Shown here one piece after another: positions 6,659-50,294 of a stretch of DNA of 64,000 nucleotides. Source of the DNA: Escherichia coli 042 (GTDB lineage Bacteria > Pseudomonadota > Gammaproteobacteria > Enterobacterales > Enterobacteriaceae); NCBI RefSeq assembly GCF_000027125.1, contig NC_017626.1. One strand, given 5' to 3'. Numbering within the stretch: the first letter of the stretch is position 1; every line of letters begins with the position of its first letter. Below the pieces are notes generated by a model. That model worked only from the letters and a program-made list of their open reading frames with translations, was not told where the DNA came from and searched no databases. A program made the translations under genes and the position numbers.

Positions 6659-6913
6659 ATGAACCAGAAAACACTTGAAGATGTAATCAAAACTGTTCGC
6701 GTTTCTGTTGTGGCCGACGTTTGTGGTGTCAGCCAAAGAGCAATCTACAAATGGATGGATAACGGAAAATTGCCTCGCACAGAATATACCGGCGAAACAA
6801 ATTACGCTGAAAAAATCGCTCATGCATCAAACGGATTATTTTCTGCCGATGCAATTTTAACTATTGGCAGAAATAAAACTACTACGAAAAAGCTGATGGG
6901 AGTTGATTCATGA
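6659..6913 (+). CDS. ydaS: Cro-like HTH protein YdaS
   Basis: Translation MNQKTLEDVIKTVRVSVVADVCGVSQRAIYKW; position right of repressor. Start uncertain. Confidence 0.7.
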   Translation: MNQKTLEDVIKTVRVSVVADVCGVSQRAIYKWMDNGKLPRTEYTGETNYAEKIAHASNGLFSADAILTIGRNKTTTKKLMGVDS

Positions 6914-7332
6914 AAATCAAGCATGAGCACATCGAATCAGTGTTGTTAGCCCTGGCTGCTGAAAAAGGGCAGGCATGGGTAGCCAATGCCATTACTGAAG
7001 AATATCTGCGCCAGGGGGGCGGCGAATTGCCTCTGGTTCCAGGCAAGGACTGGAACAATCAGCAGAATATCTATCACCGTTGGTTGAAAGGTGAAACGAA
7101 AACGCAAAGAGAAAAAATTCAGAAGCTGATCCCAGCAATTCTGGCAATCCTTCCGCGCGAGCTGCGTCACCGACTCTGCATCTTCGATACCTTGGAACGC
7201 CGTGCATTACTGGCGGCGCAGGAAGCGTTAAGTACGGCAATTGATGCGCATGATGATGCTGTCCAGGCCGTTTACCGGAAAGCGCATTTCAGCGGTGGCG
7301 GGTCTTCCGACGATTCTGTCATTGTTCATTAA
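6910..7332 (+). CDS. ydaT: YdaT (140 aa), toxic Rac protein repressed by RacR
   Basis: 140-aa ORF overlapping ydaS stop (ATGA); matches ydaT size and synteny. Confidence 0.8.
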   Translation: MKIKHEHIESVLLALAAEKGQAWVANAITEEYLRQGGGELPLVPGKDWNNQQNIYHRWLKGETKTQREKIQKLIPAILAILPRELRHRLCIFDTLERRALLAAQEALSTAIDAHDDAVQAVYRKAHFSGGGSSDDSVIVH

Positions 7333-7344
7333 GCAAAAGTTTTC

Positions 7345-8202
7345 ATGCTGTTTGTGCTTATTCTAAGCAACCGGACAGCATCATACGGGGCAATTATGGC
7401 CGCATTACCATACATGCAACTGTACATAGCTGATTACTTGGCTGACACCATGCATTTGTCAGCAGAGGAGCACGGTGCGTATTTGTTGCTGATGTTCAAT
7501 TACTGGCAAACAGGAAAGCCAATACCCAAAAACAGGCTGGCAAAAATTGCCCGTCTGACTAACGAGCGATGGGCTGATGTTGAACCATCCTTGCGGGAGT
7601 TTTTTTGCGATAACGGCGAGGAATGGGTGCATCTTCGGATTGAGGAAGATCTGGCATCAGTCAGGGAAAAATTAACCAAAAAATCAGCCGCAGGAAAAGC
7701 ATCTGTTCAGGCCAGAAGAAGCAGAAAGGAAGCAGATGTTCAAACAAAACAAGAGAGAAATTTAACAGGTGTTCAAACAGATGTTGAAGTGGTGTTTGAA
7801 CATGATGCCAACACAAAGGCAACTAATAAAGATACAGATAAAGATCTAAAAACAGATCCCCCCCTAAATCCCCCCCGGGGGAATCGAGGTGTCAAAAAGT
7901 TTGACCCTCTGGATATTGCTTTGCCGAACTGGATTTCTGTCTCGCTTTGGCGTGAGTGGGTTGAATTTCGCCAGGCATTGCGTAAACCGATTCGAACGGA
8001 GCAGGGCGCTAACGGGGCGATACGGGAGCTGGAAAAATTCCGCCAGCAGGGTTTTTCACCTGAGCAGGTGATTCGACACAGCATCGCCAATGAATACCAA
8101 GGCTTGTTCGCGCCAAAAGGTGTTCTACCTGAGACGTTACTCCGACAGGTTAACACCGTCTCGTTACCGGATAGTGCGATCCCGCCAGGCTTCAGGGGGT
8201 AA
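7345..8202 (+). CDS. ydaU: Replication initiation protein O-like (YdaU), 285 aa
   Basis: 285-aa ORF, same length as K-12 YdaU; precedes DnaC-like gene. Confidence 0.75.
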   Translation: MLFVLILSNRTASYGAIMAALPYMQLYIADYLADTMHLSAEEHGAYLLLMFNYWQTGKPIPKNRLAKIARLTNERWADVEPSLREFFCDNGEEWVHLRIEEDLASVREKLTKKSAAGKASVQARRSRKEADVQTKQERNLTGVQTDVEVVFEHDANTKATNKDTDKDLKTDPPLNPPRGNRGVKKFDPLDIALPNWISVSLWREWVEFRQALRKPIRTEQGANGAIRELEKFRQQGFSPEQVIRHSIANEYQGLFAPKGVLPETLLRQVNTVSLPDSAIPPGFRG

Positions 8203-8208
8203 CTGACC

Positions 8209-8955
8209 ATGAAAAATATTGCGGCAGGCGGCATTCTTGAACGTATCCGCAGACTGGCCCCGCCACATGTAACCGCCCCATTCAAAACGGTAGCGGAGTG
8301 GCGCGAGTGGCAACTTTCCGAAGGCCAGAAACGTTGTGAGGAGATCAACCGTCAGAATCGTCAGTTGCGGGTGGAAAAAATTCTGAATCGCTCTGGCATC
8401 CAGCCATTGCACCGCAAATGCTCGTTTGCGAATTACCAGGTGCAGAACGACGGTCAGCGATACGCGTTGAACCAGGCGAAATCTATCGCTGATGAACTGA
8501 TGACCGGGTGTACAAATTTTGCGTTCAGCGGAAAACCTGGTACCGGAAAAAACCATCTGGCGGCGGCTATCGGGAATCGCCTGCTGAAAGATGGCCAGAC
8601 AGTGATTGTGGTTACCGTGGCTGATGTCATGAGTGCTCTACACGCCAGCTATGACGACGGGCAATCAGGCGAAAAATTTTTGCGGGAACTGTGCCAAGTG
8701 GATCTGCTGGTTCTTGATGAAATTGGCATTCAGCGCGAGACAAAAAACGAGCAGGTGGTGCTGCACCAGATTGTTGATCGCCGGACAGCGTCGATGCGCA
8801 GCGTGGGGATGCTGACAAACCTGAACTATGAGGCCATGAAAACATTGCTCGGCGAGCGGATTATGGATCGCATGACCATGAACGGCGGGCGATGGGTGAA
8901 TTTTAACTGGGAGAGCTGGCGTCCGAATGTCGTCCAGCCAGGAATTGCGAAGTGA
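8209..8955 (+). CDS. ydaV: DnaC-like helicase loader (YdaV), 248 aa
   Basis: Walker [14 protein letters not shown], Walker B LLVLDEIG. Confidence 0.85.
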
Positions 8956-8977
8956 TTTTTACCGGGAGGAAATTTTA

Positions 8978-9739
8978 ATGGAAACCGTTTTTGATGCACT
9001 GAAAGCAATGGGAAAAGCCACGTCGGTAGAACTGGCTGCGCGACTTGATATCAGTCGTGAAGAAGTGCTGAACGAGCTGTGGGAACTTAAAAAGGCTGGC
9101 TTCGTTGATAAAAGCGTATACACCTGGCGTGTGGCTGATAACAACGTTCAGCAGGAACAGCCAGAGCAGGCAGAACTGCCGGAAGAAACCACCACGGCAA
9201 CAGTAGCGAAAATCTCAGAGTGCGATTTAACCGCGACGATTGAACAACGTGGCCCACAAACGGCGGATGAACTGGCTACGTTTTTCGGCACCACATCACG
9301 CAAAGTGGCTTCAACGCTGGCAATGGCAATCAGCAAAGGCCGTCTGATTCGCGTTAATCAGAACGGTAAATTTCGTTACTGCATGCCGGGCGATGATTTA
9401 CCAGCAGAGCCGAAAGCTGCATCGGTAACGGAAACTGATGGTAAAGCCTTTCCTCAACCAGCAGGTGTTGCGTTACCGGGACAGGAAGCTGCAACACAGG
9501 AAGATATTAAAACAGAAACTGTGGCGGACATTGTGCAGTCGTTGCCATCGTTTACCGAAACGCGAGCGGATGACCTCGTTCTGCCATCGCTGCATATGGC
9601 AAACCGCGAACTGCGTCGGGCGAAAAATCATGTCCAGAAGTGGGAACGTGTCTGCGCCGCGCTGCGGGAGCTGAACAAGCACCGGGATATTGTTCGACAG
9701 ATTACTGATTCTTCTCGCTGTGTTGCATCGGAAAAGTGA
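8978..9739 (+). CDS. Phage hypothetical protein (YdaW-like), 253 aa
   Basis: ORF with strong RBS GGGAGGA before ATG at 8978; function unknown. Confidence 0.55.
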
Positions 9740-9754
9740 TTGCCGGAGGCGCTT

Positions 9755-10171
9755 ATGGCAAAAGTATTTACACAAGAAGAGCGGGAAAAAATCAAGGGAC
9801 AGGTTGTTGAGCTAGTACGCCGGAGTGGGCGCGAGACGTTACGGCAACTGGAAGCCAAGACAGGTGCGACAAGATATCTGATGAGCGTTCTCGCCAGAGA
9901 GCTGGTTGCCAGTGGCGATGTATACAACTCTGGCTACGGGTTATTCCCGTCTGAACAGGCTCGTAAGGACTGGCAAAATGCCCGCAAAAAACTATCTAGG
10001 GCAAAGGTGAAGAAACCATCTGTGGTTGATCCGGACCTTATCTGGTCATTACCTGACGGAGAAATACGTCGTTATGACAGGCACCAAAACATAATTTGCT
10101 GTGAGTGCCGGAAGAGCGAAGTTATGCAGCGCATACTGGCATTTTATCAGAGAAATTTTCGTTATTTATAG
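9755..10171 (+). CDS. Phage hypothetical protein, 138 aa
   Basis: ORF with GGAGG RBS; C-terminal Cys pair (CCEC). Confidence 0.5.
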   Translation: MAKVFTQEEREKIKGQVVELVRRSGRETLRQLEAKTGATRYLMSVLARELVASGDVYNSGYGLFPSEQARKDWQNARKKLSRAKVKKPSVVDPDLIWSLPDGEIRRYDRHQNIICCECRKSEVMQRILAFYQRNFRYL

Positions 10172-10334
10172 ACGTTACTCGATTAAAGAGCATTAGTTCA
10201 GATGTGAATTGACATTTTCACGGCACAGGATTGAGCTAGCGTGGTTGTCTGCTTTGTGTCAAAAGCAGATATTACCAGATTTAGACATCTATTCCCGATA
10301 GCCCTGCTCTGATGCTACACTCTGTGCTATTTTC

Positions 10335-11021
10335 ATGACCCCAATAAAAATATTTATGACTATTGCTGATTTCAAACGGCCTAAATTGGAGCTCCCAAAC
10401 GGGGCAAACAAACTACTACTGCACTCTTGCTGTGCTCCATGTTCCGGTGAAGTGATGGAGGCGCTTCAGGCCTCGGGAATCGACTATACCATCTTTTTCT
10501 ACAACCCGAACATTCATCCTCAGAAAGAGTATTTAATTCGTAAGGATGAGAATATTCGCTTTGCTGAACAACACGGCGTGCCATTTATTGATGCTGATTA
10601 CGACACAGACAACTGGTTTGAACGTGCCAAAGGAATGGAATGGGAGCCCGAGAGGGGGATCCGTTGTACCATGTGTTTTGACATGCGTTTTGAGCGGACA
10701 GCGCTGTACGCTGCTGAAAATGGTTTCAGTGTGATCAGCAGTTCACTGGGCATTTCACGCTGGAAAAATATGCAGCAGGTTAACGACTGTGGGCGGCGAG
10801 CCGTCGCGCATTATCCGGGCATGGTGTACTGGGATTATAACTGGCGCAAGCAGGGCGGCTCGTCCCGCATGATTGAAATCAGCAAGCGCGAAAAATTCTA
10901 TCAGCAGGAATATTGTGGCTGTGTGTATTCTCTGCGCGATACCAATCTACACCGCAAATCTCAGGGACGCCCTCTTATCAAAATTGGTCAACTCCACTAC
11001 GGTAAAGAAGAGAAGGAGTGA
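10335..11021 (+). CDS. DUF208/QueH-like Fe-S protein (epoxyqueuosine reductase family)
   Basis: N-terminal [21 protein letters not shown] and C-terminal YCGCVYSL motifs typical of QueH. Start codon uncertain (10335 or 10356). Confidence 0.65.
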
Positions 11022-11201
11022 TTTTATGGAGCACCTTTCTTATTGATTTCATATTGGCGAGGTAGCGGGAGTTAAGTAAAATTGCTGCGGGTGCTTGAGG
11101 CTATCTGCCTCAGGCATGAACACCAAAAGGCAGATAGAGAAAAGCCCCAGTTAACATTACGCGTCCTGCAAGACGCTTAACATTAATCTGAGGCTCAATC
11201 T

Positions 11202-11414
11202 ATGCTGAACACATGTAGGTTAGCCTCTTACGTGCCGAAAGGCAAGGAGAAGCAGGCTATGAAGCAGCAAAAGGCGATGTTAATCGCCCTGATCGTCATC
11301 TGTTTAACCGTCATAGTGACGGCACTGGTAACGAGGAAAGACCTCTGCGAGGTACGAATCCGAACCGGGCAGACGGAGGTCGCTGTCTTCACAGCTTACG
11401 AACCTGAGGAGTAA
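11202..11414 (+). CDS. mok: mok-like overlapping reading frame (translational coupling to hok)
   Basis: 70-aa frame that contains the hok ORF in-frame, as in hok/mok loci. Confidence 0.5.
   Translation: MLNTCRLASYVPKGKEKQAMKQQKAMLIALIVICLTVIVTALVTRKDLCEVRIRTGQTEVAVFTAYEPEE
11259..11414 (+). CDS. hok: Hok/Gef family membrane toxin (51 aa)
   Basis: MKQQKAMLIALIVICLTVIVTALVTRKDLCEVRIRTGQTEVAVFTAYEPEE: Hok-family TM helix plus conserved C..E..R. Confidence 0.85.
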   Translation: MKQQKAMLIALIVICLTVIVTALVTRKDLCEVRIRTGQTEVAVFTAYEPEE

Positions 11415-11880
11415 GAGACCGGGCGAGGGAGAAATCCCTCGCCACCTCTGATGTATTATGCATCCTCAACGCACCCACACTTAACCAGTTTTGGCGAGTT
11501 TATTTTATCTGTAAATATTTTTATAAAAATAATGCCCACGCACAGCATAAAACAAAAAGTATTACAGATAAAAAAGGAGCGTAATGTGCAGATTTGTTGT
11601 TTTCCATATTTACTCACCTTAATATGATTGATCTTGATAGGATTGTTATTTCAGTGGTTTTCAAATGAGATATTATGGTGATCTGGTAGATTTGCATAAC
11701 ATTAAAATTTAATTTGTTTAACCGCTTTTAATAATAAGCGTTGTTTTTATCCCGGCAATCTGTTGTTTGGTTTTTATTCCATTAAGGTGGGGACTTTACA
11801 CTGGAGCCAGTTTATTTATACTTCATACGTCAGCCTGAACAACTGGCATCTGCTGCACTGCGCCATCGAGAGATTGAGAA

Positions 11881-12480
11881 ATGGCGCATATACAACTGGT
11901 CAAACAAACTTCTTCTGGTTTACTTCTCCCGGCGACGCCGGAGAGTTGCGATTTTCTGCATCAAATCAAAATAGGTGAGTGGATACACGCAGACTTTAAG
12001 CGTGTGCGTAACTACGCATTCCACAAGCGTTTTTTCAAACTCCTGCAACTGGGATTCGATTACTGGACTCCGGTCGGTGGGGCGATCACACCTCGCGAAC
12101 GAGAAATGGTGTTCGGCTTCGTTGATTACCTGTGTGAATCAGTAGGCAGGGAACATACGCCAGCTCTGAGTGATGCCGCGGAACAATATCTGAATACCGT
12201 TGCGACACGCAGAACCCGGGATATGGCATTGCTCAAATCATTTGACGCTTTCCGCGAGTGGGTAACCATTCAGGCCGGATTTTACACCGAGCATTTTTAT
12301 CCTGATGGTAGTCGTGGGCGTCGGGCGAAATCCATCGCGTTTGCGAATATGGACGAAACCGAGTTTCAGCAGGTTTATAAATCTGTACTGAATGTGCTGT
12401 GGAACTGGATTCTGTTCCGTAAATTTTCCTCTCCGGAACAAGTCGAAAATGTGGCCGCGCAGCTACTGGAGTTTGCGTAA
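11881..12480 (+). CDS. Phage nin-region protein of unknown function, 199 aa
   Basis: ORF immediately upstream of and abutting the YbcO-like gene. Confidence 0.55.
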   Translation: MAHIQLVKQTSSGLLLPATPESCDFLHQIKIGEWIHADFKRVRNYAFHKRFFKLLQLGFDYWTPVGGAITPREREMVFGFVDYLCESVGREHTPALSDAAEQYLNTVATRRTRDMALLKSFDAFREWVTIQAGFYTEHFYPDGSRGRRAKSIAFANMDETEFQQVYKSVLNVLWNWILFRKFSSPEQVENVAAQLLEFA

Positions 12481-12770
12481 TGGTGGATTTACGTAAAGCG
12501 GCGCGGGGCCAGATGTGCCAGGTCAGAATCCCTGGCTACTGCAATCACAATCCCGAAACTTCTGTGCTGGCGCATTACAGGTTGGCAGGGACGTGCGGAA
12601 CAGCGACAAAACCACACGATATGCAGGCAGCGATTGCCTGTAACTCATGCCACGATTTAATCGACGGGCGGGTAAAAACCAGCGATTACACCAAAGAAGA
12701 ATTACGCCTGATGCATGCAGAAGGTGTTTTTCGCACGCAAGAAATCTGGAGAAAGGAAGGTTATTTATGA
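12480..12770 (+). CDS. YbcO-like DUF1364 phage protein (putative nuclease), 96 aa
   Basis: Conserved Cys pattern (CQVRIPGYCN...CNSCHD) as in DLP12 YbcO. Confidence 0.7.
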   Translation: MVDLRKAARGQMCQVRIPGYCNHNPETSVLAHYRLAGTCGTATKPHDMQAAIACNSCHDLIDGRVKTSDYTKEELRLMHAEGVFRTQEIWRKEGYL

Positions 12771-13303
12771 TTTACCCAACAAATACAGGCAAAAGCGGGG
12801 AACACCTTCGTCTCACCACGCTGGAAAGTGTCTGGATTCAGGGAAAACTGCGCATGTGGGGGCGCTGGTCGTATATTGGCGGCGGTAAGACGGGGAATAT
12901 GTTTAACCAGTTGCTGGCGTCAAAAAAATTGACGAAAACAGCCATCAATGAAGCCCTGCGCAGAATGAAAAAAGCGGGAATAGAGAAAGCTGAGCTGGAA
13001 GCGTTTTTGCGAGAGATGATCAACGGCAAGCAAAAGAGCTGGCTGGCGCATTGTACTGATGCAGAGGCACTAAAAATTGATAGTGTTATAGGTGAAGTTC
13101 TGGCGGATCATCCAGGACTACTAAATGTCCTGAGTCAGCGTTATGTGGGGCGAGGGATGAGTAAGAGAAGGATGGCCGAGTTATTAAACGAACAGTACCC
13201 AGAGTGGGCGTTGATTACATGCCGACGTCGTGTTGATCAGTGGTTGCGTGTTGCTGAGTTCATTTTGTATTCACCTATGAGAGAAGCGTTCGATTATGCT
13301 TAA
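12767..13303 (+). CDS. Late-gene antiterminator Q-like protein, 178 aa
   Basis: Position (last gene before tRNAs and lysis cassette), overlap with upstream gene, RBS GAAAGGAAGG; family assignment from memory only. Confidence 0.55.
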   Translation: MIYPTNTGKSGEHLRLTTLESVWIQGKLRMWGRWSYIGGGKTGNMFNQLLASKKLTKTAINEALRRMKKAGIEKAELEAFLREMINGKQKSWLAHCTDAEALKIDSVIGEVLADHPGLLNVLSQRYVGRGMSKRRMAELLNEQYPEWALITCRRRVDQWLRVAEFILYSPMREAFDYA

Positions 13304-13399
13304 AAAATCATTGCAAAATGAGCCACAAACTGCTTCAATTTCGGTACGCTTCGCATAGCTGTATCGCGAGGCAAATTAAGCGCATGAACTTTAATACAA

Positions 13400-13426
13400 C
13401 CCGCCATTGAGCGGGTTTTGTTGTTT
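13400..13426 (+). terminator. Candidate tR'-type intrinsic terminator
   Basis: cccgc-cattga-gcggg stem-loop followed by ttttgttgttt. Confidence 0.4.
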
Positions 13427-13558
13427 CTGTGGCGTGATATCAGAAACGACATTTAATAATCGCCTTCAAAATAAATTTGTTTATACATTGTCATGTATAT
13501 TTTAAGTGAAAGTGAATTATTCACATAAAATAAAAACACATAAATAAATTTACATAAC

Positions 13559-13590
13559 TTGACGCAAAGTGTTGTTGCGATTGGAATATT
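13559..13590 (+). promoter_or_regulatory. Candidate sigma-70 promoter for the tRNA pair
   Basis: TTGACG then 17-nt spacer then TGGAAT; AT-rich UP-like tract upstream. Confidence 0.25.
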
Positions 13591-13665
13591 AAATCGTATC
13601 ATCGAAAACGGTTCTGAGGGGGAACTCTTCTTTGCTCGGTGATATCGCTCCCCTGAAGAACCAAT

Positions 13666-13741
<76 letters not shown>

Positions 13742-13744
13742 TAT

Positions 13745-13819
<75 letters not shown>

Positions 13820-14121
13820 GCATTTGAAACAAGCCTTATTGTATTGCGGCACTGGCGTATTTTTTTATTACGTGGGAGCAGGTTGTTTTGAAAAAGCATT
13901 CTGTTCTCTGGCTATGATTTGAGGCCGGGTGTAGCCTCAGTGCTGATTTTTTACGGCAGCAGAATGGTGCATTATCGGTGGAGATTTTGTATTTCCTGGC
14001 AGGGTCGGTGATGCATCATTCTGGTGTTGTAAAAGCACCGCAGAGGCGTTCCTCAGGGCGAGGGTGGTTTAAAGAGTCGGTTTAGCGGGAAACCACAGTA
14101 TCCATACGGCACGGAATACTT

Positions 14122-14148
14122 CGGGAGGCACCCGACGCCTCGGTTTTA
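14122..14148 (+). terminator. Terminator-like hairpin
   Basis: gaggc-acccgac-gcctc then ggtttta. Confidence 0.3.
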
Positions 14149-14182
14149 TAACAATTAAATAATTCATCCCTTAATTGACCAA

Positions 14183-14207
14183 CCGCCGTATCAGGCGGTT
14201 TTTTTTA
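14183..14207 (+). terminator. Intrinsic terminator
   Basis: ccgcc-gtatca-ggcgg followed by T9. Confidence 0.5.
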
Positions 14208-14595
14208 TTCCTTTCTCAGGACAAAAAAATACACGAGCATCCAGGAATACTCGTGGGACAACGTCCTTTGGATAGCAATTTGCGAGAGGGTGAAAAGTAG
14301 CGCGGTCGTCGGATTAAGACCGCGGGACAAAGTCCATGAAGAAGAATAAGTATCGGTCTCCTTCCGGAGACGAGTTGATATTACTAAGCTTTAAAAATGG
14401 TTTAAATCCTCAGATCAACCTTAATTTCAGATAAGGTTTATTTCATTTTCTCCGCGTCACATCCGACGCACATCACATCAGATAACACCACACAAAAGGC
14501 ATCTGCGGGTGTCTTTGACGGGGTGTTTTTTACGGGCCGCTGGTGGCCATTTTTTGTTTCCATTACACAGCGCCCGCATCTGCGAGGTGGGGGTT

Positions 14596-14811
14596 ATGAA
14601 ATCCATGGATAAGTTAACAACGGGTGTCGCCTATGGCACCTCCGCAGGCAGTGCTGGCTACTGGTTTTTACAGCTGCTCGATAAAGTCACGCCCTCACAG
14701 TGGGCAGCAATAGGTGTGCTGGGTAGCTTGGTATTTGGCCTGCTGACGTACCTGACAAACCTTTATTTCAAGATTAAAGAAGATAAGCGCAAGGCTGCGA
14801 GAGGTGAATAA
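14596..14811 (+). CDS. Pinholin, phage 21 S21-type, dual-start (MKSM), 71 aa
   Basis: [26 protein letters not shown]...; RBS GAGGTGGGGG; two start Mets three codons apart. Confidence 0.85.
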
Positions 14812-15308
14812 TGCCTCCATCATTACGAAAAGCCGTTGCTGCTGCTATTGGTGGCGGAGCAATTGCTATAGCATCAGTGTTAATCACTGGCCCAAGTGGT
14901 AACGATGGTCTGGAAGGTGTCAGCTACATACCATACAAAGATATTGTTGGTGTATGGACTGTATGTCACGGGCATACAGGAAAAGACATCATGCTCGGTA
15001 AAACGTATACCAAAGCAGAATGCAAAGCCCTCCTGAATAAAGACCTTGCCACGGTCGCCAGACAAATTAACCCGTACATAAAAGTTGATATACCGGAAAC
15101 AACGCGCGGCGCTCTTTACTCGTTCGTTTACAACGTGGGCGCTGGCAATTTCAGAACATCGACGCTTCTTCGCAAAATAAACCAGGGCGATATCAAAGGC
15201 GCATGTGATCAGCTACGTCGCTGGACATATGCTGGCGGTAAGCAATGGAAAGGTCTCATGACTCGTCGTGAGATTGAGCGTGAAATCTGTTTGTGGGGTC
15301 AGCAATGA
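14811..15308 (+). CDS. SAR endolysin (R21-type lysozyme), 165 aa
   Basis: N-terminal Gly/Ala-rich signal-anchor-release segment [18 protein letters not shown]; lysozyme body. Confidence 0.85.
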
Positions 15309-15769
15309 ACAGAGTAACCGCGATTATCTCCGCTCTGGTTATCTGCATCATCGTCTGCCTGTCATGGGCTGTTAATCATTACCGTGATAATGCCATTACC
15401 TACAAAGCGCAACGCGATAATGTGAAGGAAAAACTCAACCAGGCGACCGCAATCATTACTGACATGCAGATACGCCAGCGTGATGTTGCTGCACTCGATG
15501 CAAAATACCTGAAGGAGTTAGCTGATGCGAAAGCTGAAAATGATGCTCTGCGTGATGATGTTGCCGCTGGTCGTCGTCGGTTGCACATCAAAGCAGTCTG
15601 TCCGTCCGTGCGTGAAGCCACCATCGCCTCCAGCGTGGATAATGCAGTCTCCCCCAGACTGGCAGACACCGCTGAACGGGATTATTTCACCCTCCGGGAA
15701 CGACTGGTAATGATGCAGGCCCAACTTGAAGGTGCTCAGCAATACATAACCGAACAGTGTTTAAAGTAA
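15305..15769 (+). CDS. Spanin inner-membrane subunit Rz
   Basis: N-terminal TM, coiled-coil body, follows endolysin. Confidence 0.8.
15525..15710 (+). CDS. Spanin outer-membrane lipoprotein Rz1 (embedded in Rz, +1 frame)
   Basis: Lipobox LVVVGC, Pro-rich mature part, fully nested in Rz. Confidence 0.75.
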
Positions 15770-15906
15770 AATCTTAACTACAATATGATTCATTTTGATG
15801 ATTGTTTCATAAGGAACAGTGAAGTAAGATCTAAGATGAGTTAAATTTTATACAGTATAATCATAATGTTGCAGCAAGGTGGTTATAATTGAAAGAATAT
15901 TTAGAT

Positions 15907-17364
15907 ATGAATACATCTCATGTAAGAGTTGTTACTCATATGTGTGGGTTCCTGGTTTGGCTCTATAGTCTTTCAATGTTGCCACCAATGGTTGTAGCAT
16001 TGTTTTATAAAGAAAAAAGCCTGTTCGTTTTCTTTATAACTTTCGTTATATTTTTTTGCATTGGTGGCGGAGCGTGGTATACAACTAAGAAATCTGGTAT
16101 TCAATTACGTACCCGTGATGGGTTTATTATAATTGTAATGTTTTGGATTTTGTTTTCTGTTATTAGTGCATTCCCTTTATGGATTGACTCAGAACTTAAT
16201 TTAACGTTTATTGATGCTCTATTTGAAGGGGTTTCTGGAATAACAACAACAGGAGCAACTGTAATTGATGATGTTAGTTCATTACCTCGGGCATATTTGT
16301 ACTATCGGTCACAGTTAAATTTTATAGGTGGCTTAGGAGTTATTGTTCTGGCGGTTGCTGTATTGCCATTATTGGGTATTGGTGGTGCAAAGCTTTATCA
16401 GTCAGAAATGCCAGGGCCATTTAAGGATGACAAACTTACTCCCCGCCTGGCCGATACGTCACGGACACTTTGGATAACTTATTCTTTATTAGGTATTGCT
16501 TGTATTGTCTGTTATAGACTTGCAGGAATGCCTTTGTTTGATGCTATTTGTCACGGGATATCCACAGTTTCGCTTGGTGGTTTCTCAACTCATAGCGAGA
16601 GTATCGGATATTTTAATAACTATTTGGTTGAGCTGGTGGCTGGTTCTTTTTCCCTGCTATCGGCTTTCAACTTCACCCTTTGGTATATTGTTATTAGCAG
16701 GAAAACGTTAAAACCTTTAATCAGAGATATTGAACTTCGTTTCTTTCTGTTAATAGCCTTAGGGGTGATCATTGTTACCTCTTTCCAGGTCTGGCATATA
16801 GGTATGTATGACTTGCCTGGAAGTTTTATTCATTCGTTTTTTCTTGCCAGCTCCATGCTCACTGATAATGGTTTAGCTACGCAGGATTACGCAAACTGGC
16901 CCACGCACACGATAGTGTTTTTGCTGTTGTCAAGTTTCTTTGGGGGATGTATAGGTTCAACTTGTGGTGGAATTAAGTCACTTCGATTTCTTATACTTTT
17001 CAAACAAAGCAAACACGAGATAAACCAGCTTTCTCATCCCAGAGCGTTGTTGAGTGTAAATGTAGGAGGGAAGATAGTTACAGATCGTGTAATGAGGTCT
17101 GTATGGAGTTTCTTTTTTCTTTATACTCTCTTCACGGTGTTTTTTATACTGGTGTTAAATGGTATGGGATATGATTTTCTTACATCATTTGCAACAGTGG
17201 CTGCATGTATTAATAATATGGGATTAGGTTTTGGGGCTACTGCATCGTCATTCGGAGTGCTTAATGACATTGCAAAATATTTAATGTGCATAGCTATGAT
17301 TCTTGGTCGCCTTGAAATTTATCCTGTTATTATATTGTTTTCAGGTTTTTTTTGGCGCTCCTAA
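15907..17364 (+). CDS. trkG: Potassium uptake protein TrkG (485 aa)
   Basis: Polytopic membrane protein matching TrkG/TrkH; AT-rich relative to flanks. Confidence 0.85.
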   Translation: MNTSHVRVVTHMCGFLVWLYSLSMLPPMVVALFYKEKSLFVFFITFVIFFCIGGGAWYTTKKSGIQLRTRDGFIIIVMFWILFSVISAFPLWIDSELNLTFIDALFEGVSGITTTGATVIDDVSSLPRAYLYYRSQLNFIGGLGVIVLAVAVLPLLGIGGAKLYQSEMPGPFKDDKLTPRLADTSRTLWITYSLLGIACIVCYRLAGMPLFDAICHGISTVSLGGFSTHSESIGYFNNYLVELVAGSFSLLSAFNFTLWYIVISRKTLKPLIRDIELRFFLLIALGVIIVTSFQVWHIGMYDLPGSFIHSFFLASSMLTDNGLATQDYANWPTHTIVFLLLSSFFGGCIGSTCGGIKSLRFLILFKQSKHEINQLSHPRALLSVNVGGKIVTDRVMRSVWSFFFLYTLFTVFFILVLNGMGYDFLTSFATVAACINNMGLGFGATASSFGVLNDIAKYLMCIAMILGRLEIYPVIILFSGFFWRS

Positions 17365-17501
17365 TATATGGCTGATTTATAATTGTGAGTTTAATATTAT
17401 ATTGACTCACTCATTGATCCAATACCTAACTTTACCAGCAACACCTCCGCCCCCAGTAGCACTGGCTGCTGGGGTGCGTTTTATTCATAAAGCAAGGCTG
17501 T

Positions 17502-18293
17502 ATGAGCGAGAAATTGAAGATCGTCTATCGCCCTTTACAAGAACTGTCTCCGTATGCACACAACGCCAGGACACACAGCCCTGAGCAGGTGGCACAACTG
17601 GTAGAAAGCATTAAGCAATTCGGCTGGACTAATCCGGTGCTGATTGATGAAAAGGGCGAAATTATTGCTGGTCACGGTCGCGTTATGGCGGCTGAAGTGC
17701 TCAAAATGGATTCCATTCCGGTCATCGTTCTGTCTGGTTTGATGGATGATCAGAAAAAGGCGTACCGCCTGGCAGATAATCGCCTGCCGCTGAACGCTGG
17801 CTGGGATGAAGAACTGTTGCGGATGGAGCTGTCGGAGCTAATCAATGCTGATTTTGATATCTCCCTGACAGGATTCAGCCCGACAGAAATTGATGAACTG
17901 TTGACGGATGTTTTGCCAGGTACAGGAAATGAGGAGGAGCCGTACACGACGAAAATTGATACGCCTGTTTATGAGCCGTCGGGCGATAAACCGGACATCA
18001 GTGAGCTGTACGACGATACGAAAACTCAGGAGCTGATCAGCCGGATACGTTCGGCGTCCCTTGAGCCCGATATCGAAAAATTCCTCCTGTGCGCGGCAGA
18101 ACGCCACACGGTGTTTAATTTCAGCAGAATTGCGGACTATTACGCTCACGCCCCCGCTGAAATTCAGTGTTTTTTCGAGGAGTCGGCGCTGGTGATCATT
18201 GATTATCAGCAGGCTATTGAAAATGGATTTGTCCGGATGACGCAGCGCATGGTGGAGATCATGCATGGTGGTGAGGAGGAGGAATATGCGTGA
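17502..18293 (+). CDS. ParB-like nuclease domain protein, 263 aa
   Basis: N-terminal ParB/Srx-like motif (GHGR..A); acidic C-terminus. Confidence 0.65.
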   Translation: MSEKLKIVYRPLQELSPYAHNARTHSPEQVAQLVESIKQFGWTNPVLIDEKGEIIAGHGRVMAAEVLKMDSIPVIVLSGLMDDQKKAYRLADNRLPLNAGWDEELLRMELSELINADFDISLTGFSPTEIDELLTDVLPGTGNEEEPYTTKIDTPVYEPSGDKPDISELYDDTKTQELISRIRSASLEPDIEKFLLCAAERHTVFNFSRIADYYAHAPAEIQCFFEESALVIIDYQQAIENGFVRMTQRMVEIMHGGEEEEYA

Positions 18294-19218
18294 TGATTTT
18301 TGCGCCTTTATTCTGACTCACGGGCGACCGGACAAAGTTCTGACTTACCGGACGTTGCGTCGTGCTGGCTATACCGGGAAAATTTTTATCGTTGTTGATG
18401 ATGAAGATAAGACACGGCATCAGTACATGGCTGAATTTGGTGAACAGGTGCTGGTGTTTTCCAAAGCCGATATCGCCAGTCGTTTTGACGAAGCCGATAA
18501 TTTCGGTGACCGCCGCTCAATTTTTTACGCCCGTAATGCCTGTTTCGACCTGGCAAAACTGGTCGGGTGTAAATACTTCATTCAGCTCGATGATGATTAT
18601 CACGAGTTCCAGTTTCGGGTGGATCGCAACTATGACCAGGCCTATTTTCCGATAAGGAAACTGGATGCGATCCTTTCTGAAATGCTGGCGTACTACGAAT
18701 CAATACCTGCTCTTTCCATCGCTATGTCGCAGGGCGGGGATTTTCTTGGTGACAATGGCGGCCATGCTTCGTGGGTGAAACGCAAGGCAATGAACAGCTT
18801 TATCTGTTCGGTTGATCGACCGTTCTCATTCATGGGGCGCATTAACGAGGATGTGAATACGTACACGAATCTCGGTCGCTGTGGTGAATTGTTTATGACG
18901 ATCGGTGCTGTCCAGTTAGGGCAGAAACAGACGCAGAAAAACAGCGGCGGAATGACCGAGCTGTATCTGGATTCCGGAACCTACGTTAAAAGTTTTTACT
19001 CCGTCATGTATGCGCCGTCGTGCGTAAAAATCTCACTGATGGGTGCCAGCCATAAACGCATTCACCATCAGGTCACCTGGAACAACGCTGCAGTAAAAAT
19101 CCTTCACGAAAAATACAGGAAGAAGACACCCTGCATATCAATAGGGGTGACAAATGATTCCATATTCGAAAGTCGAGTCTCTGGCAGCGTGCCGGATGAC
19201 TGCACAACAAATCGCTGA
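18286..19218 (+). CDS. Hypothetical protein, 310 aa (possible nucleotide-sugar transferase-like fold)
   Basis: Strong RBS GAGGAGGAGG; motifs FILTHGRP, IVVDDED, FIQLDDDY suggest DXD-type transferase but unverified. Confidence 0.5.
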   Translation: MRDDFCAFILTHGRPDKVLTYRTLRRAGYTGKIFIVVDDEDKTRHQYMAEFGEQVLVFSKADIASRFDEADNFGDRRSIFYARNACFDLAKLVGCKYFIQLDDDYHEFQFRVDRNYDQAYFPIRKLDAILSEMLAYYESIPALSIAMSQGGDFLGDNGGHASWVKRKAMNSFICSVDRPFSFMGRINEDVNTYTNLGRCGELFMTIGAVQLGQKQTQKNSGGMTELYLDSGTYVKSFYSVMYAPSCVKISLMGASHKRIHHQVTWNNAAVKILHEKYRKKTPCISIGVTNDSIFESRVSGSVPDDCTTNR

Positions 19219-19405
19219 CGTTCTGGATGTTGATCTGAACCGACTGAAAGAAAATCGGGAAGCAATGACAGATTTTTATGCGGCCATCCGTAAGGGCAGA
19301 GCGAAAGGTGAAGCCGAGTTACGAGCGGCATTGTTTAAGCTTGCCAGAAAAGGGGATGCCTTTGCTCTGCGCGAACTACTCAGGGTGGATAAAAATCAGG
19401 ACTAA
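19154..19405 (+). CDS. Small HTH-like phage protein, 83 aa
   Basis: ORF overlapping end of upstream gene; start uncertain. Confidence 0.4.
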   Translation: MIPYSKVESLAACRMTAQQIADVLDVDLNRLKENREAMTDFYAAIRKGRAKGEAELRAALFKLARKGDAFALRELLRVDKNQD

Positions 19406-19408
19406 CTG

Positions 19409-20503
19409 ATGAGCAGACCGGACTGGGGGGCGTTGCAGCAGGAGTATATTGCTGAATACACCCGCTCCGGTATATCTCCGGTGGCATGGTGTGAAGCAAG
19501 GGGACTGAATTACGCAACAGCCCGTCGTTACATCAAAAAACCTCCGAAAAATGCGCAGACAGAAATGCGCAAAACTGCGCAAAAAAGTGCGCAGAAAAAA
19601 TCTGCGCAGACTGCACAAAAGCGGAACGAAAAATCTCAGGAAAAAAAGCCAGTATTCGATGCGGGCCTGAATGAGGGCGACGCGGAGGAATTTTCGTTCT
19701 GTCCCGATGAATTCGGCATTTCTGACCAGCAGGCTAAGTTTGCGATGCTTGTTGCTCAGGGGAAAAAGCCGACAGAGGCGTACCGACTAGCCGGTTATGA
19801 GGGGCAAGGTGCGACAGCTAACAGCAACGCCAGTCGTATGCTTAGAAATGCCAGGGTTTTTCGCGCTATCAGCTACTTCCGCAATCAGTACCAGAAACGC
19901 TATACCGCAGACCTGGATTTACTGGTGAGTCAGTTGATGGCCATTGTCCTGGCCGACCCCAATCAGCTTGCACAATTTCGCCGTGTTAACTGCCGTTATT
20001 GCTGGGGCGAGAATCATCTCTACCAGTGGCGCGATATAGCAGAATTCGACAAGGCAGCGGCGCAGGCTTCCAGAGATGGCAAACCCGAACCGGAATATGG
20101 AGGCCTCGGCTTTGTTGATAACGCCATACCCAATCCGGACTGCCCGAAGTGCTGCGGTGAGGGAACGGGACAGCTTTATATGGCTGATACCACTCTGCTT
20201 GATGGGGATGCGCGGCAATTATATGCAGGGGCAAAACTCGGAAAATTCGGCGTTGAGATCCTGCTGGAGGATAAGGCTGCCGCCCGGCGTGAATTGTTGC
20301 GTTTGCTTTCTGCTGGCGGGGCTTTATGTGCAGATAAGCGGCTACAGGAACTGGAAATTGAACGACGCAGAATGGAAAACCAGAAGCTGCGCAAAGAGAT
20401 CGAAACGGTGGAAGATAATGAACATCCCCAGCCTGTGGCGATCAATATTAATGTGGTTGATGCCAGAGTAAGGAGTGATGAAGATGATCTCTCCGACGCT
20501 TAA
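19409..20503 (+). CDS. Terminase small subunit (P27-type), 364 aa
   Basis: N-terminal HTH, position directly upstream of large terminase. Confidence 0.7.
   Translation: MSRPDWGALQQEYIAEYTRSGISPVAWCEARGLNYATARRYIKKPPKNAQTEMRKTAQKSAQKKSAQTAQKRNEKSQEKKPVFDAGLNEGDAEEFSFCPDEFGISDQQAKFAMLVAQGKKPTEAYRLAGYEGQGATANSNASRMLRNARVFRAISYFRNQYQKRYTADLDLLVSQLMAIVLADPNQLAQFRRVNCRYCWGENHLYQWRDIAEFDKAAAQASRDGKPEPEYGGLGFVDNAIPNPDCPKCCGEGTGQLYMADTTLLDGDARQLYAGAKLGKFGVEILLEDKAAARRELLRLLSAGGALCADKRLQELEIERRRMENQKLRKEIETVEDNEHPQPVAININVVDARVRSDEDDLSDA
19550..19620 (+). repeat. TGCGCA(G/A) direct-repeat array (5-6 copies, 9-15 bp spacing)
   Basis: tgcgca at 19552, 19566, 19576, 19588, 19603, degenerate 19612. Confidence 0.6.
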
Positions 20504-21785
20504 TGTGCCTCAGGCGCGATTTCTTTCAATGCCCCATAAATTTAAAGCCTATATTGCTGGTTTTGGCTCGGGCAAAACATGGGTTGGGTGTGGCGGCATA
20601 TGCAAGGGGATTTGGGAGCATCCAGGTATAAATCAGGGATATTTTGCGCCAACGTATCCCCAAATTCGCGATATTTTTTACCCTACAGTGGAAGAAGTTG
20701 CTGCTGACTGGGGATTGAACGTAAAAATTAATGAGGGAAATAAAGAGGTTCACTTTTATTACGGACGCCAGTATCGGGGAACCACTATCTGCAGATCGAT
20801 GGAGAAGCCACAAACGATCGTCGGTTTCAAAATTGGTAATGCGCTGGTGGATGAACTGGACATTTTGCCGAAGGAAAAAGCCAGAACGGCGTGGCGCAAG
20901 ATAATTGCGCGTATGCGTTATAAGATTGATGGACTTCGCAACGGTATTGACGTTACAACCACGCCGGAAGGATTCAAATTTGTCTACGAGCAGTTTGTTA
21001 AAGCCGTGCGTGAAAAAACAGAGCTGGCCTCACTGTATGGTCTGGTGCAGGCATCTACTTTCGATAATGAAAAGAACCTGCCAGCAGATTACATTCCTTC
21101 GCTTCTTGAATCATACCCACCAGAGCTGATTAAAGCCTATCTTCGAGGACAGTTTACTAACCTGACAAGTGGTACTGTTTACCATCAGTTTGACCGGAAA
21201 CTGAATAATTGCGAAGAAGTGGAGCAGCCAGGGGAGCCGATTTATATTGGGATGGATTTTAACGTTGGAAAGATGGCGGGGATCGTCCATGTGCTGCGTT
21301 TGGGGCTTCCATGTGCGGTAACTGAAATCATCAATGCCTACGATACGCCGGATATGATCCGCATCATTAAAGAACGCTTCTGGCTGTATGACGGGAATGA
21401 TTACCGGAAAGTGAGGGAGATTTATATTTATCCAGATGCTTCCGGAGATTCCAGAAAATCAAGTAACGCAAGTACGACGGATATAGCCCAGCTTAAGCAG
21501 GCTGGTTTTAACGTTGTGGTGAACAGCTCGAACCCGCCAGTAAAAGATCGCGTTAACTCAATGAATGCAATGTTCTGCAATGCCAATGGTGAGCGTCGCT
21601 ATAAAGTTAATGTGAAGCGTTGTCCGGTATATGCCGAATCTCTGGAGCAACAGGTCTGGGATGATAAGGGGGAGCCTGATAAAAAATCTGGCAATGATCA
21701 CCCGAATGATGCCGGAGGTTATTTCATCGTTAAGCAATTCCCTATTGTCAAACCGACCGGAAGAGTCACATCACTTCGGATTTAA
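20475..21785 (+). CDS. Terminase large subunit, 436 aa
   Basis: Walker A GFGSGKT near N-terminus; size and position. Confidence 0.85.
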   Translation: MMKMISPTLNVPQARFLSMPHKFKAYIAGFGSGKTWVGCGGICKGIWEHPGINQGYFAPTYPQIRDIFYPTVEEVAADWGLNVKINEGNKEVHFYYGRQYRGTTICRSMEKPQTIVGFKIGNALVDELDILPKEKARTAWRKIIARMRYKIDGLRNGIDVTTTPEGFKFVYEQFVKAVREKTELASLYGLVQASTFDNEKNLPADYIPSLLESYPPELIKAYLRGQFTNLTSGTVYHQFDRKLNNCEEVEQPGEPIYIGMDFNVGKMAGIVHVLRLGLPCAVTEIINAYDTPDMIRIIKERFWLYDGNDYRKVREIYIYPDASGDSRKSSNASTTDIAQLKQAGFNVVVNSSNPPVKDRVNSMNAMFCNANGERRYKVNVKRCPVYAESLEQQVWDDKGEPDKKSGNDHPNDAGGYFIVKQFPIVKPTGRVTSLRI

Positions 21786-21787
21786 TT

Positions 21788-24290: not shown

Positions 24291-24309
24291 ATAAATCATT
24301 TATTACAAC

Positions 24310-24336
24310 AGGCTACCTTCGGGTGGCCTTTTTTAT
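24310..24336 (+). terminator. Intrinsic terminator with UUCG tetraloop
   Basis: aggctacc-ttcg-ggtggcct followed by T7. Confidence 0.45.
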
Positions 24337-24394
24337 TGCTGCGATCCGGATGGTGAGCAGCGTAACTGTCGGAAGACTTAAACCAGGTACTAAT

Positions 24395-25159: not shown

Positions 25160-25257
25160 TACATTTGCCAGCTTCCGGATGGGAGTTGGTGTCAGGGCTG
25201 GATAGCTCACTACTCAATCCATTCACAATTACGCAAATTTTTAAGGAATATTTAATT

Positions 25258-26397: not shown

Positions 26398-26439
26398 ACA
26401 TCCAAACGGGGCTTCGGCCCCATTTTTAATGGAGGGTAT

Positions 26440-50067: not shown

Positions 50068-50294
50068 TGAATAAATCCTTTAGTTATTTTATTTGCCTTT
50101 TATCCCCATTTCGGGGAGTGAAAACATCCTAAAGGAGATGTTCAGTTAGCCGATAAATATCATTTGTTACGCCTTAAGTAAAACCTTAATCAAATAATTC
50201 TTCTGAAATGATAATAAGTCTGGTGAATGTATTGGAGATAATACATACAAAATAAAAATTATACTTTTAATTTGCTATACGTTATTCTGCGCGG

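Follow-up and report, generated by a model that had tools for sequence, protein, structure and literature searches.

A predicted complete hok/mok/sok locus of the hokD/hokW subtype in a Rac-like prophage of Escherichia coli 042

Analysis of a 64,000-nucleotide stretch of Escherichia coli 042 (contig NC_017626.1; hereafter the window, whose positions are used throughout) indicated with high confidence that 11054-11509 is a complete, intact hok/mok/sok type I toxin-antitoxin locus of the hokD/hokW subtype, as known from its sequence elements. This is an ordinary, already known module of a host-killing toxin and an antisense-RNA antitoxin, and the first-pass annotation had spotted it correctly. 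At every point that sequence can address, the hok/mok/sok assignment was supported. The locus belongs to the nin region of a Rac-like lambdoid prophage, where queH and a DUF1367 gene flank it in the gene context racR, ydaS/T/U/V, queH, hokD, DUF1367/1364/1133, tRNAs, essD and rrrD. Other exclusion or toxin genes (sieB, kilR, ydaS/T) are present nearby. RefSeq labels the identical DNA hokD in six genomes, and E. coli genomes have 2 matches to this locus in the median and 10 at most. The cassette was found in many different phage backbones and positions, co-oriented with the upstream genes in all inspected examples. E. coli strain 190, 100% identical over the locus, was considered as a base-for-base collinear proxy and rejected, because indels brought positional identity to 26-70%. 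BLAST of the window against strain 190 gave blocks at 85-98.6%, and its annotation served as a mere guide outside approximately 6900-26500 of the window.

Toxin and mok reading frames

The coding features are as follows.

11259-11414, plus strand: hok toxin gene (HokD, 51 aa), SD AAGGAG at 11244-11249; assigned from Pfam, K-12 identity and the RefSeq name hokD
11202-11414, plus strand: mok frame (70 aa), in frame with hok, SD GAGG at 11190-11193; from the open reading frame list
11397-11400, plus strand: TACG motif in the Tyr47 codon, read from the sequence; candidate site for A-to-I editing by TadA, which would change Tyr to Cys

A 51-aa Hok toxin nested in a 70-aa mok frame had been claimed, and the shorter frame does lie in frame inside the longer one. 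The toxin is identical to the K-12 HokD protein and matched Pfam HOK_GEF (PF01848) at E = 3.5e-23 over the entire 42-position model. The mok frame matched PHROG 251 ('MokW-like host killing') at 7.7e-33, and its GAGG sits 8 nt 5' of the mok ATG. The two frames are arranged as in the annotated mok coding sequences of the R1-type and Sp5 loci; from this arrangement, hok translation is predicted to be coupled to mok via the overlapping frame. NCBIfam NF007279 (Hok family toxin) and NF007290 (HokA) scored 48.5 and 40.2 bits, under their curated cut-offs of 73 and 89, respectively; both models were built on other Hok subtypes. Despite these scores, PGAP calls the exact same protein HokD. The toxin ORF was identical in 80 of 80 phage loci, and the flanks varied.

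K-12 HokD, whose sequence is identical, is reported to be toxic when overexpressed (bioRxiv 10.1101/2025.08.07.668861), and sokW is reported to neutralise HokW (PMC8621323). Editing at the equivalent hokD codon has also been stated (bioRxiv 10.1101/2025.08.07.668861). Around the TACG motif, local folding into a tRNA-like (tRNA-Arg-like) hairpin was unconvincing (-2.5 kcal/mol, 13-nt loop).

Structure and conservation of the two RNAs

The predicted sense transcript carries the following elements, listed from the promoter to the 3' end.

11054-11082, plus strand: predicted hok promoter, -35 TTGGCG (11054-11059), 17-nt spacer, -10 TAAAAT (11077-11082)
11089-11509, plus strand: predicted full-length hok mRNA, 5' end at approximately 11089/11090; from folding and alignment with the R1-type and Sp5 loci
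11089-11100, plus strand: tac (translational activator), GGGUGCUUGAGG; fbi partner in the MFE structure, invariant in 68 relatives
11094-11114, plus strand: metastable 5' hairpin, CUUGAGGC-UAUCU-GCCUCAGG (inverted repeat I6); putative role by analogy with R1 (PMC9841398)
11101-11110 with 11128-11137, plus strand: leader stem; from folding and repeat search
11142-11150, plus strand: ucb (anti-SD of mok), AAGCCCCAG; its partner is CUGAGGCUC (11188-11196) in the full-length structure and tac in the alternative one
11223-11227, plus strand: dcb, GCCUC; partner of the mok SD GAGGC (11190-11194) in the processed mRNA, from the RF01794 consensus structure
11422-11443, plus strand: 3' stem-loop, nine perfect pairs (repeat I5); predicted 3' end of the processed, active mRNA
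11464-11476, plus strand: fbi (fold-back inhibition), CCUCAACGCACCC; tac partner in the MFE structure (repeat I8)
11483-11509, plus strand: decayed intrinsic terminator, AACCAGTTTTGGCGAGTTTATTTTATC; family consensus AACCCGCTTCGGCGGGTTTTTGTTTTT (consensus-bearing copies, AACCCGCTTCGGCGGG)

The suggested match to hok mRNA architecture was borne out: promoter, tac, metastable hairpin, leader stem, ucb, mok SD/ATG, dcb, hok SD, 3' stem-loop and fbi were all found. The hok promoter had 9 of 12 consensus matches in a consensus scan, and the distance from its -10 to GGGTGC is equal in the Sp5, PPompW, P1-like and R1-type loci. Rfam RF01794 matched window 11089-11264 on the plus strand with 119.6 bits against a gathering value of 59, over model positions 1-157. 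The 392-nt RNA 11089-11480 folded with an MFE of -157.8 kcal/mol (z = -6.7; 0 of 100 shuffles were equally stable), with its 5' and 3' ends paired.

In the leader, a long inverted repeat had been placed at about 11098-11135. It is present, but those coordinates are a few bases off: the arms span 11090-11110 and 11128-11148 (21 nt, 76% complementarity), and the perfect core is CTATCTGCCT (11101-11110) with AGGCAGATAG (11128-11137). This leader stem was 98.1% paired across the relatives, and 2 of its pairs had changed on both sides, one example being A-U replaced by G-C in 7 sequences. A second hairpin, 11092-11101 with 11107-11116 (repeat I6), overlaps the leader repeat inside the string first reported. 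The metastable 5' hairpin was 100% paired across the 68 relatives, with G.U variants on the plus strand.

At the other end, the hairpin reported at 11418-11442 is real, but it actually lies at 11422-11443 and is formed by GGCGAGGGA (11422-11430), GAAA and TCCCTCGCC (11435-11443). It was 99.3% paired, and one pair shows A-U, G.U and G-C variants. This hairpin is the counterpart of the internal stem-loop at which the processed, active R1 hok mRNA ends, and it would therefore be a 3'-trimming stop, not the 3' end of the primary transcript (PMC9841398). In R1, mutations in the equivalent 3' stem cause loss of function (PMC9841398). The span first drawn, 11040-11450, cuts off both fbi, which starts 20 nt 3' of the stem-loop, and the terminator remnant. 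tac and fbi form twelve pairs with one bulge in the MFE structure and were 99.5% paired in the 68 relatives, among which fbi variants were mostly C-to-U changes giving G.U on the plus strand. Between R1 and the present copy, tac/fbi covary from GGCGC/GCGCC to GGUGC/GCACC. The terminator hairpin has an energy of -3.0 kcal/mol here versus -11.5 kcal/mol for the family consensus. Because this terminator has decayed in the present copy, the primary transcript may end after fbi or, should the decayed terminator not work, as far as a terminator-like site at 11723-11750.

Conservation of pairing was evaluated in the 68 relatives. The full-length structure was 90.8% paired, versus 33-46% when the partners were slid. 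Nine pairs were changed on both sides, a number reached by 0 of 500 shuffles. The alternative pairings (tac-ucb, metastable hairpin, SD-dcb) were 99-100% paired; tac-ucb pairing was possible in 100% of cells, and the mok SD-dcb pairing reached 99%. Complementarity for the closed form (ucb-mok SD) and for the open form (tac-ucb, mok SD-dcb) was conserved in both cases and agrees with the Rfam consensus structure. Since most of the tac, ucb and dcb pairs do not vary within the family, they give no covariation, leaving covariation support weak. ViennaRNA MFE folding of the 3'-truncated RNA 11089-11447 gave the metastable 5' hairpin instead of the tac-ucb stem. The refolding step was therefore not reproduced by MFE prediction and was adopted from the R1 literature.

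On the opposite strand, the antitoxin features are as follows.

11212 to 11137, minus strand: predicted Sok antisense RNA, approximately 72-76 nt, with predicted ends; from folding and homology
11217-11245, minus strand: Sok promoter, -35 TTGCCT (11245-11240), 17-nt spacer, -10 TAACCT (11222-11217); identical to that of Sp5 sokW

A minus-strand Sok had been expected around 11150-11240 and judged impossible to delimit by eye. The strand agrees with our prediction, but the RNA is better placed at approximately 11212 to 11137 with its promoter at 11245-11217, and homology to sokW together with folding now sets predicted limits. The predicted RNA begins with a single-stranded 5' tail (11212-11197), continues as a long hairpin (11196-11142) and ends in a U-rich 3' tail (11141-11137). 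The sequence features of a Sok-like RNA were found, namely a predicted promoter within the mok region, a putative terminator hairpin and a 5' tail whose sequence complements the mok start. The span folded at -31.8 kcal/mol (z = -6.0) on the minus strand versus -20.0 kcal/mol (z = -3.6) on the plus strand. Across the 68 relatives, the Sok hairpin was 96.5% paired on the minus strand versus 78.9% on the plus strand. On the minus strand, this hairpin contains 270 G.U cells, whereas the G.U pairs of the mRNA helices all lie on the plus strand. The conserved pairing, plus-strand for the mRNA helices and minus-strand for the Sok hairpin, indicates that both RNAs have probably stayed under selection.

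Promoter prediction on the minus strand had been proposed as a check. The Sok promoter, with a -10 that fits only 3 of 6 positions, went unflagged in a generic promoter scan; it is identical to the validated sokW promoter. Mutation of the sokW -10 (primers YO-421/422) eliminated antitoxin activity (PMC8621323). With 1 mismatch, 11182-11211 matches the northern probe used for sokW, YO-592. A generic terminator scan missed the terminators of both Sok and hok. Since the generic scans, which did recover the hok promoter, missed all three, the Sok promoter, Sok terminator and hok terminator rest on homology and folding. The Rfam RF01794 'sok' match lies on the plus strand and models the sense leader, so it gives no evidence for the antisense RNA; caution is needed, as this model marks the sense leader and not the antitoxin strand.

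Relation to known hok/sok systems

The closest relative, which is experimentally characterised, is hokW-sokW of the Stx2 prophage Sp5 (phage VT2-Sakai) of E. coli O157:H7 Sakai (Takada et al. 2021, PMC8621323). Nucleotide identity to this locus was 93.8% over window 11069-11487. The tac, fbi and ucb elements, the Sok -35, spacer and -10, dcb, the mok SD and the mok N-terminal region are all identical, and the predicted Sok differs from sokW by 2 nt, at 11167 (in the hairpin loop) and 11201. The toxins differ in 4 of 51 residues at the C-terminus (...FTAYEPEE here and ...FVDYESEK in HokW), and these four residues separating HokD from HokW are the sole differences between mok and MokW. Both loci reside in a lambdoid prophage, co-oriented with the upstream genes. 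The Sp5 cassette lies among ea22-like/DUF551 genes before a YgiW/YdeI-family gene, whereas the present one lies between queH and DUF1367 in the nin region. Sequences 3' of fbi are unrelated between the two copies, and hokW-sokW is also without a terminator.

The R1 hok/sok (parB) locus, the paradigm type I system, has the same elements in the same order: tac, metastable hairpin, leader stem, ucb, Sok terminator hairpin, mok SD/ATG, Sok promoter overlapping dcb, in-frame mok-hok, TACG Tyr codon, 3' stem-loop and fbi. The R1 transcripts are reportedly 398 and 361 nt long. At the DNA level, R1 and the present copy align in short stretches only. The Sok hairpin is approximately 17-20 nt longer here than in R1, through an inserted GCGUC...GACGC extension, and the Sok -10 reads TAACCT in the present copy against TATCCT in R1. 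R1 is a plasmid and the present host element is a prophage, so the plasmid-stabilisation role of R1 may not carry over. A distant DNA search of plasmids returned mostly P1-like hokD copies and short leader fragments. An R1-type locus was retrieved with the R1 Hok protein sequence as query, which gave a 100% match in >2,600 plasmids. Sp5 HokW, 92% identical to the present toxin, is 44% identical to R1 Hok (PMC8621323), and the mechanism elements are named as defined for R1 (PMC9841398).

K-12 hokD (relF), in the Qin cryptic prophage, encodes the identical 51-aa toxin and is homologous in hok SD, coding region, 3' stem-loop and fbi. This homology begins at the hok SD, at approximately window 11243. 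Upstream of it, relBE takes the place of promoter, tac, leader, ucb, mok start and sok, which makes K-12 hokD a truncated remnant. It retains the strong terminator that has decayed in the present copy.

Mechanism and role in the prophage

The mechanism is modelled on R1 and Sp5; the present locus contributes the presence and conservation of every required sequence element. A stable hok mRNA would be transcribed from the promoter at 11054-11082, starting at approximately 11089, and its nascent 5' end would be trapped in the metastable hairpin (11094-11114). In the full-length RNA, tac (11089-11100) would pair with fbi (11464-11476), and ucb (11142-11150) would cover the mok SD region (11188-11196); this closed form would allow neither translation nor Sok binding. 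Slow 3' trimming to the stem-loop at 11422-11443 would remove fbi, after which tac-ucb pairing and pairing of the mok SD with dcb (11223-11227) would expose the mok start region. The short, unstable Sok (approximately 11212 to 11137, minus strand; promoter 11245-11217) would bind that region and lead to RNase III cleavage. Upon loss of Sok, mok would be translated from 11202 with hok coupled to it, and the 51-aa HokD would enter the inner membrane and kill or lyse the cell.

By analogy with hokW-sokW, the most likely role in the prophage is that Sok disappears upon RecA-dependent induction and Hok hastens lysis and phage release. After mitomycin C, sokW was lost and HokW was produced, and phage release was halved without the locus (PMC8621323). 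The Sp5 cassette sits elsewhere in its phage genome, and its role may not transfer. Native chromosomal hok loci that have been tested showed no post-segregational killing (bioRxiv 10.1101/2025.08.07.668861).

The same mechanism may instead have been selected for defence, in which a superinfecting phage stops host transcription, Sok decays and infection aborts, or for maintenance by killing of cells that lose the prophage; we regard this as a possible but clearly less probable role than help with lysis. Toxin-antitoxin systems are generally implicated in mobile-element maintenance and phage defence, and R1 hok/sok reportedly excludes T4. The many phage backbones and positions of the cassette are as expected of a selfish or defensive moron, and the neighbouring sieB, kilR and ydaS/T would suit that setting. 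hok is four-fold enriched in prophages (23% versus 5% expected) but not enriched near defence systems (bioRxiv 10.1101/2025.08.07.668861). Moreover, the sole direct experiment on a prophage copy favours lysis and phage release (PMC8621323), although sequence cannot tell these roles apart.

It is very unlikely that the cassette is a silent relic, with a recognisable structure that neither kills nor regulates in its native setting, as the native chromosomal hokA, hokB and hokC behaved: the terminator after fbi has decayed in the present lineage and the Sok -10 is a weak match to consensus, but every regulatory element is intact, the strand-specific conserved pairing indicates that both RNAs are still being selected, the phage loci share an invariant toxin ORF while their flanks vary, the near-identical hokW-sokW is functional though it also lacks a terminator, and a relic such as K-12 hokD looks different, with leader, mok and sok replaced by relBE.

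The Sok 5' tail targets a stretch of approximately 20 nt (11195-11216) that directly follows the mok start codon. In a set of 74 intact phage loci with identical HokD, this stretch occurred in 17 distinct versions, and its flanks and the toxin gene were almost invariant. We propose tentatively that 11195-11216 may be a specificity cassette under diversifying selection that stops cross-neutralisation by Sok between copies, giving each toxin private control. Linked to this equally tentative proposal, co-orientation with the upstream genes in the inspected examples means that read-through after induction could titrate Sok or disturb its convergent promoter; if true, this would explain the loss of Sok on induction. 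The Sok-target cassettes of co-resident copies differed in 4 of 4 genome groups, a result that is uninformative because random pairs share a cassette only 11% of the time.

The discovery value of this locus is small, as RefSeq already includes the toxin, Rfam has a family for the leader, and earlier work characterised a prophage copy with 94% identity. As a reference, it displays how the truncated K-12 hokD locus looks with promoter, leader, mok and sok intact, and it provides a base-by-base element map of the hokD/hokW subtype. The strand-asymmetry argument for Sok works independently of expression data. The hypervariable Sok-target cassette could merit study at population scale, with a view to cross-talk among the toxin-antitoxin modules of co-resident prophages.

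Toxin gene and elements of the hok mRNA

The gene annotated by RefSeq as hokD encodes a 51-aa protein identical in sequence to HokD of E. coli K-12. As the first-pass annotation had proposed, this toxin is nested in a 70-aa mok frame, whose product matched Pfam HOK_GEF (E = 3.5e-23) and PHROG 251 'MokW-like host killing' (7.7e-33). Element definitions were taken from the R1 literature (PMC9841398), and the window was aligned with hokW-sokW of the Stx2 prophage Sp5 (VT2-Sakai), K-12 hokD, an R1-type plasmid hok/sok, PPompW, a P1-like plasmid, and phage PhiR12_3.

Elements of the hok/mok/sok locus (window positions, strand, element)
11054-11082, +, hok promoter TTGGCG, 17 nt, TAAAAT (promoter scan)
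11089/11090, +, predicted hok mRNA start
11089-11100, +, tac
11094-11101 with 11107-11114, +, metastable hairpin
11101-11110 with 11128-11137, +, leader stem
11142-11150, +, ucb
11190-11193, +, mok SD GAGG
11202, +, mok ATG
11202-11414, +, mok ORF, 70 aa, containing the hok frame
11212 to ~11137, -, predicted Sok RNA (promoter homology and folding)
11223-11227, +, dcb GCCUC
11245-11240 (-35 TTGCCT), 17-nt spacer, 11222-11217 (-10 TAACCT), -, predicted Sok promoter (identity with Sp5)
11244-11249, +, hok SD
11259-11414, +, hok ORF, 51 aa, in frame within mok
11397-11400, +, TACG motif at the hok Tyr47 codon, candidate TadA A-to-I editing context (Tyr to Cys)
11422-11443, +, 3' stem-loop, 9 perfect pairs (11422-11430 with 11435-11443)
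11464-11476, +, fbi CCUCAACGCACCC

The RNA from 11089 to 11480 folded at -157.8 kcal/mol (z = -6.7), far more stable than shuffled controls. In the MFE structure, the first 12 nt paired with fbi, and ucb paired with the mok SD region. Rfam RF01794 ('sok antitoxin') matched 11089-11264 (176 nt, + strand) with 119.6 bits, above its gathering score of 59. Because this match lies on the + strand and its consensus structure holds tac-ucb and SD-dcb, the family models the sense leader and not directly the antisense RNA, and its strand should not be taken for that of the antitoxin. Fold and family match confirmed the hok mRNA architecture noticed earlier. The long leader inverted repeat was recovered with arms at 11090-11110 and 11128-11148 and the leader stem as its perfect core, and the stable hairpin ascribed to the 3' end was also found, both 1-4 bases from the positions first assigned. 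This hairpin corresponds to an internal stem-loop rather than to the end of the primary transcript; its R1 equivalent forms the 3' end of the processed mRNA and shields it from exonucleases (PMC9841398). The span first assigned (11040-11450) left fbi outside because it stopped at 11450.

Most relatives carry AACCCGCTTCGGCGGG and then a T-run after fbi, an intrinsic terminator with a hairpin of -11.5 kcal/mol. The window copy (11483-11509) has four substitutions and a hairpin of -3.0 kcal/mol, the terminator having decayed in this lineage, and intermediate alleles are present in related loci. The next + strand terminator-like site lies at 11723-11750 (terminator scan). Since Sp5 also lacks the terminator, this decay need not mean inactivity.

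TadA A-to-I editing in a TACG context has been reported for hok mRNAs, hokD included (bioRxiv 10.1101/2025.08.07.668861), and the Tyr47 motif is also kept in the Sp5 and R1-type copies of the locus alignment. The local fold around 11397-11400 was weak and gave no clear prediction of a tRNA-like hairpin. A second TACG (11353-11356) is out of frame. The promoter scan also returned TTAACA, 18 nt, TATGCT on the + strand inside the hok leader (11177-11206), probably a chance match; a transcript begun there would be missing tac, ucb, and the mok start.

Conservation of the mRNA structure

Searching IMG/VR with the HokD protein gave 80 loci, all with an identical toxin and varied flanks. An alignment of 68 distinct intact loci was assembled, among them the window's own and four annotated copies from phages or plasmids. 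Across this alignment the full-length structure was 90.8% paired, compared with 33-46% when the 3' partners were slid by 1-3 columns. Changes on both sides occurred at nine pairs, a number reached by none of 500 shuffles. The leader stem changed from A-U to G-C in 7 sequences, and one pair of the 3' stem-loop was seen as A-U, G.U, and G-C. The tac-fbi helix was 99.5% paired, its few variants being mostly C-to-U in fbi preserving G.U, and it covaries between subfamilies (GGCGC/GCGCC in R1, GGUGC/GCACC in the window). The alternative tac-ucb, metastable hairpin, and SD-dcb pairings were 99-100% paired and nearly invariant, and thus add little covariation evidence.

The predicted Sok antisense RNA

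The generic scan did not flag the minus-strand Sok promoter, because its -10 matches only 3/6; by sequence it was placed at 11245-11217, where the window and Sp5 agree at every base, with the Sok start expected at ~11212-11210. Protection was abolished when Takada et al. mutated exactly this TAACCT -10 in Sp5 (primers YO-421/422) and was restored by sokW supplied in trans (PMC8621323). Of their probes, YO-597 (hokW) matches 11247-11218 exactly, and YO-592 (sokW) has one mismatch to 11182-11211. The predicted RNA would open with a ~15-nt single-stranded 5' tail over the start codon of mok, continue as a long hairpin (11196-11142), and close with UUUUCUC. It differs from Sp5 sokW at 11167 (hairpin loop) and 11201, and compared with R1 its hairpin has an additional ~17-20-nt GCGUC...GACGC extension.

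Predicted Sok folded at -31.8 kcal/mol (z = -6.0), compared with -20.0 kcal/mol (z = -3.6) for the + strand of the same span. Among the 68 relatives, the hairpin was 96.5% paired when read as the - strand and 78.9% as the + strand, and the - strand reading accounted for 270 G.U cells. The bias was reversed for the helices of tac-fbi, the leader, and the 3' stem-loop, which had their G.U pairs on the + strand. This strand asymmetry is sequence-only evidence for a structured - strand RNA at the Sok span.

Variability in the locus is highest in the stretch after the mok ATG targeted by the Sok 5' tail. At 11199-11208 entropy peaked at 0.86 bit per column, versus at most 0.10, with most values under 0.05, across the hok coding region. 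The tail target (11195-11216), comprising mok codons 2-5 and the sequence directly before the mok ATG, took 17 distinct forms in the 74 intact phage loci compared, all with identical HokD. This variability suggests diversified antisense specificity, and 11195-11216 may be an antisense-specificity cassette.

Prophage context and probable role

A 521-nt query around the locus was 100% identical in six complete E. coli chromosomes and, at lower identity, matched 4,727 of 5,426 E. coli genomes (median 2 and maximum 10 sites per genome). Over most of its length the window shares 96-98.6% identity with E. coli strain 190, with indels. Strain 190 carries sieB, racR, ydaS/T/U/V, DUF1627, DUF977, queH, hokD, DUF1367, DUF1364, DUF1133, tRNA-Thr, tRNA-Gly, essD, rrrD, and trkG, followed by head and tail genes and then sitABCD, ompN, and nifJ. 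The surrounding element is a Rac-like lambdoid prophage whose gene set appears complete, and the locus lies in its nin region in the same orientation as upstream queH and downstream DUF1367. MicC sRNA (50292-50412, 127.5 bits) has its strain 190 counterpart in the ompN-nifJ (ydbK) intergenic region, putting the prophage at the chromosomal Rac site of E. coli.

Immediately 5' of hok in the nin region, a 228-aa ORF (10335-11021) encodes an epoxyqueuosine reductase QueH homologue, a queuosine-pathway gene aboard a phage. The AT-rich spacer that separates hok from the DUF1367 gene holds a tiny ORF (11584-11622, MCRFVVFHIYSP) with a strong AAGGAG SD (11574-11579). Two prophage tRNA genes (13666-13738 and 13745-13816; Thr and Gly by strain 190 annotation) separate the DUF1133 gene from the lysis genes. 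In strain 190, the closest sequenced strain, ralR, which encodes the toxin of a further type I toxin-antitoxin system, adjoins recET in the Rac-like prophage (L089 4932-5039), a region unmatched in BLAST against the window.

The Sp5 locus is 93.8% identical to that of the window and has the same Mok N-terminus; HokW and HokD are told apart by 4 C-terminal residues. R1 hok/sok has the whole architecture in common with this locus, with sequence likeness in patches only. In the K-12 Qin prophage (L003 4120-4873, - strand), relBE lies directly upstream, replacing the hokD promoter, leader, mok start, and sok. Homology to K-12 hokD begins only at the hok SD. The window therefore holds the intact form of a locus that survives in K-12 as the hokD remnant.

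The molecular mechanism would be that of R1 (PMC9841398) and Sp5 (PMC8621323), and all elements it requires are present, in the correct order, and conserved. In Sp5, sokW was gone after mitomycin C, HokW appeared RecA-dependently ~1 h ahead of endolysin, and loss of hokW-sokW halved phage release (PMC8621323). By analogy, this cassette most likely assists lysis when the prophage is induced. It may instead serve in maintenance of the prophage or in defence by abortive infection, roles between which the sequence does not distinguish. Native chromosomal hokA, hokB, and hokC were inactive in killing assays elsewhere (bioRxiv 10.1101/2025.08.07.668861), but a silent relic is unlikely here because both RNAs are conserved strand-specifically and the toxin is invariant.

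The hok/mok toxin locus is thus a real feature, correctly interpreted at first pass. It is a system of known kind, already annotated, with a close relative characterized experimentally. What it still offers is an exact element map, evidence for Sok from strand asymmetry, and a lead toward a possible specificity cassette.
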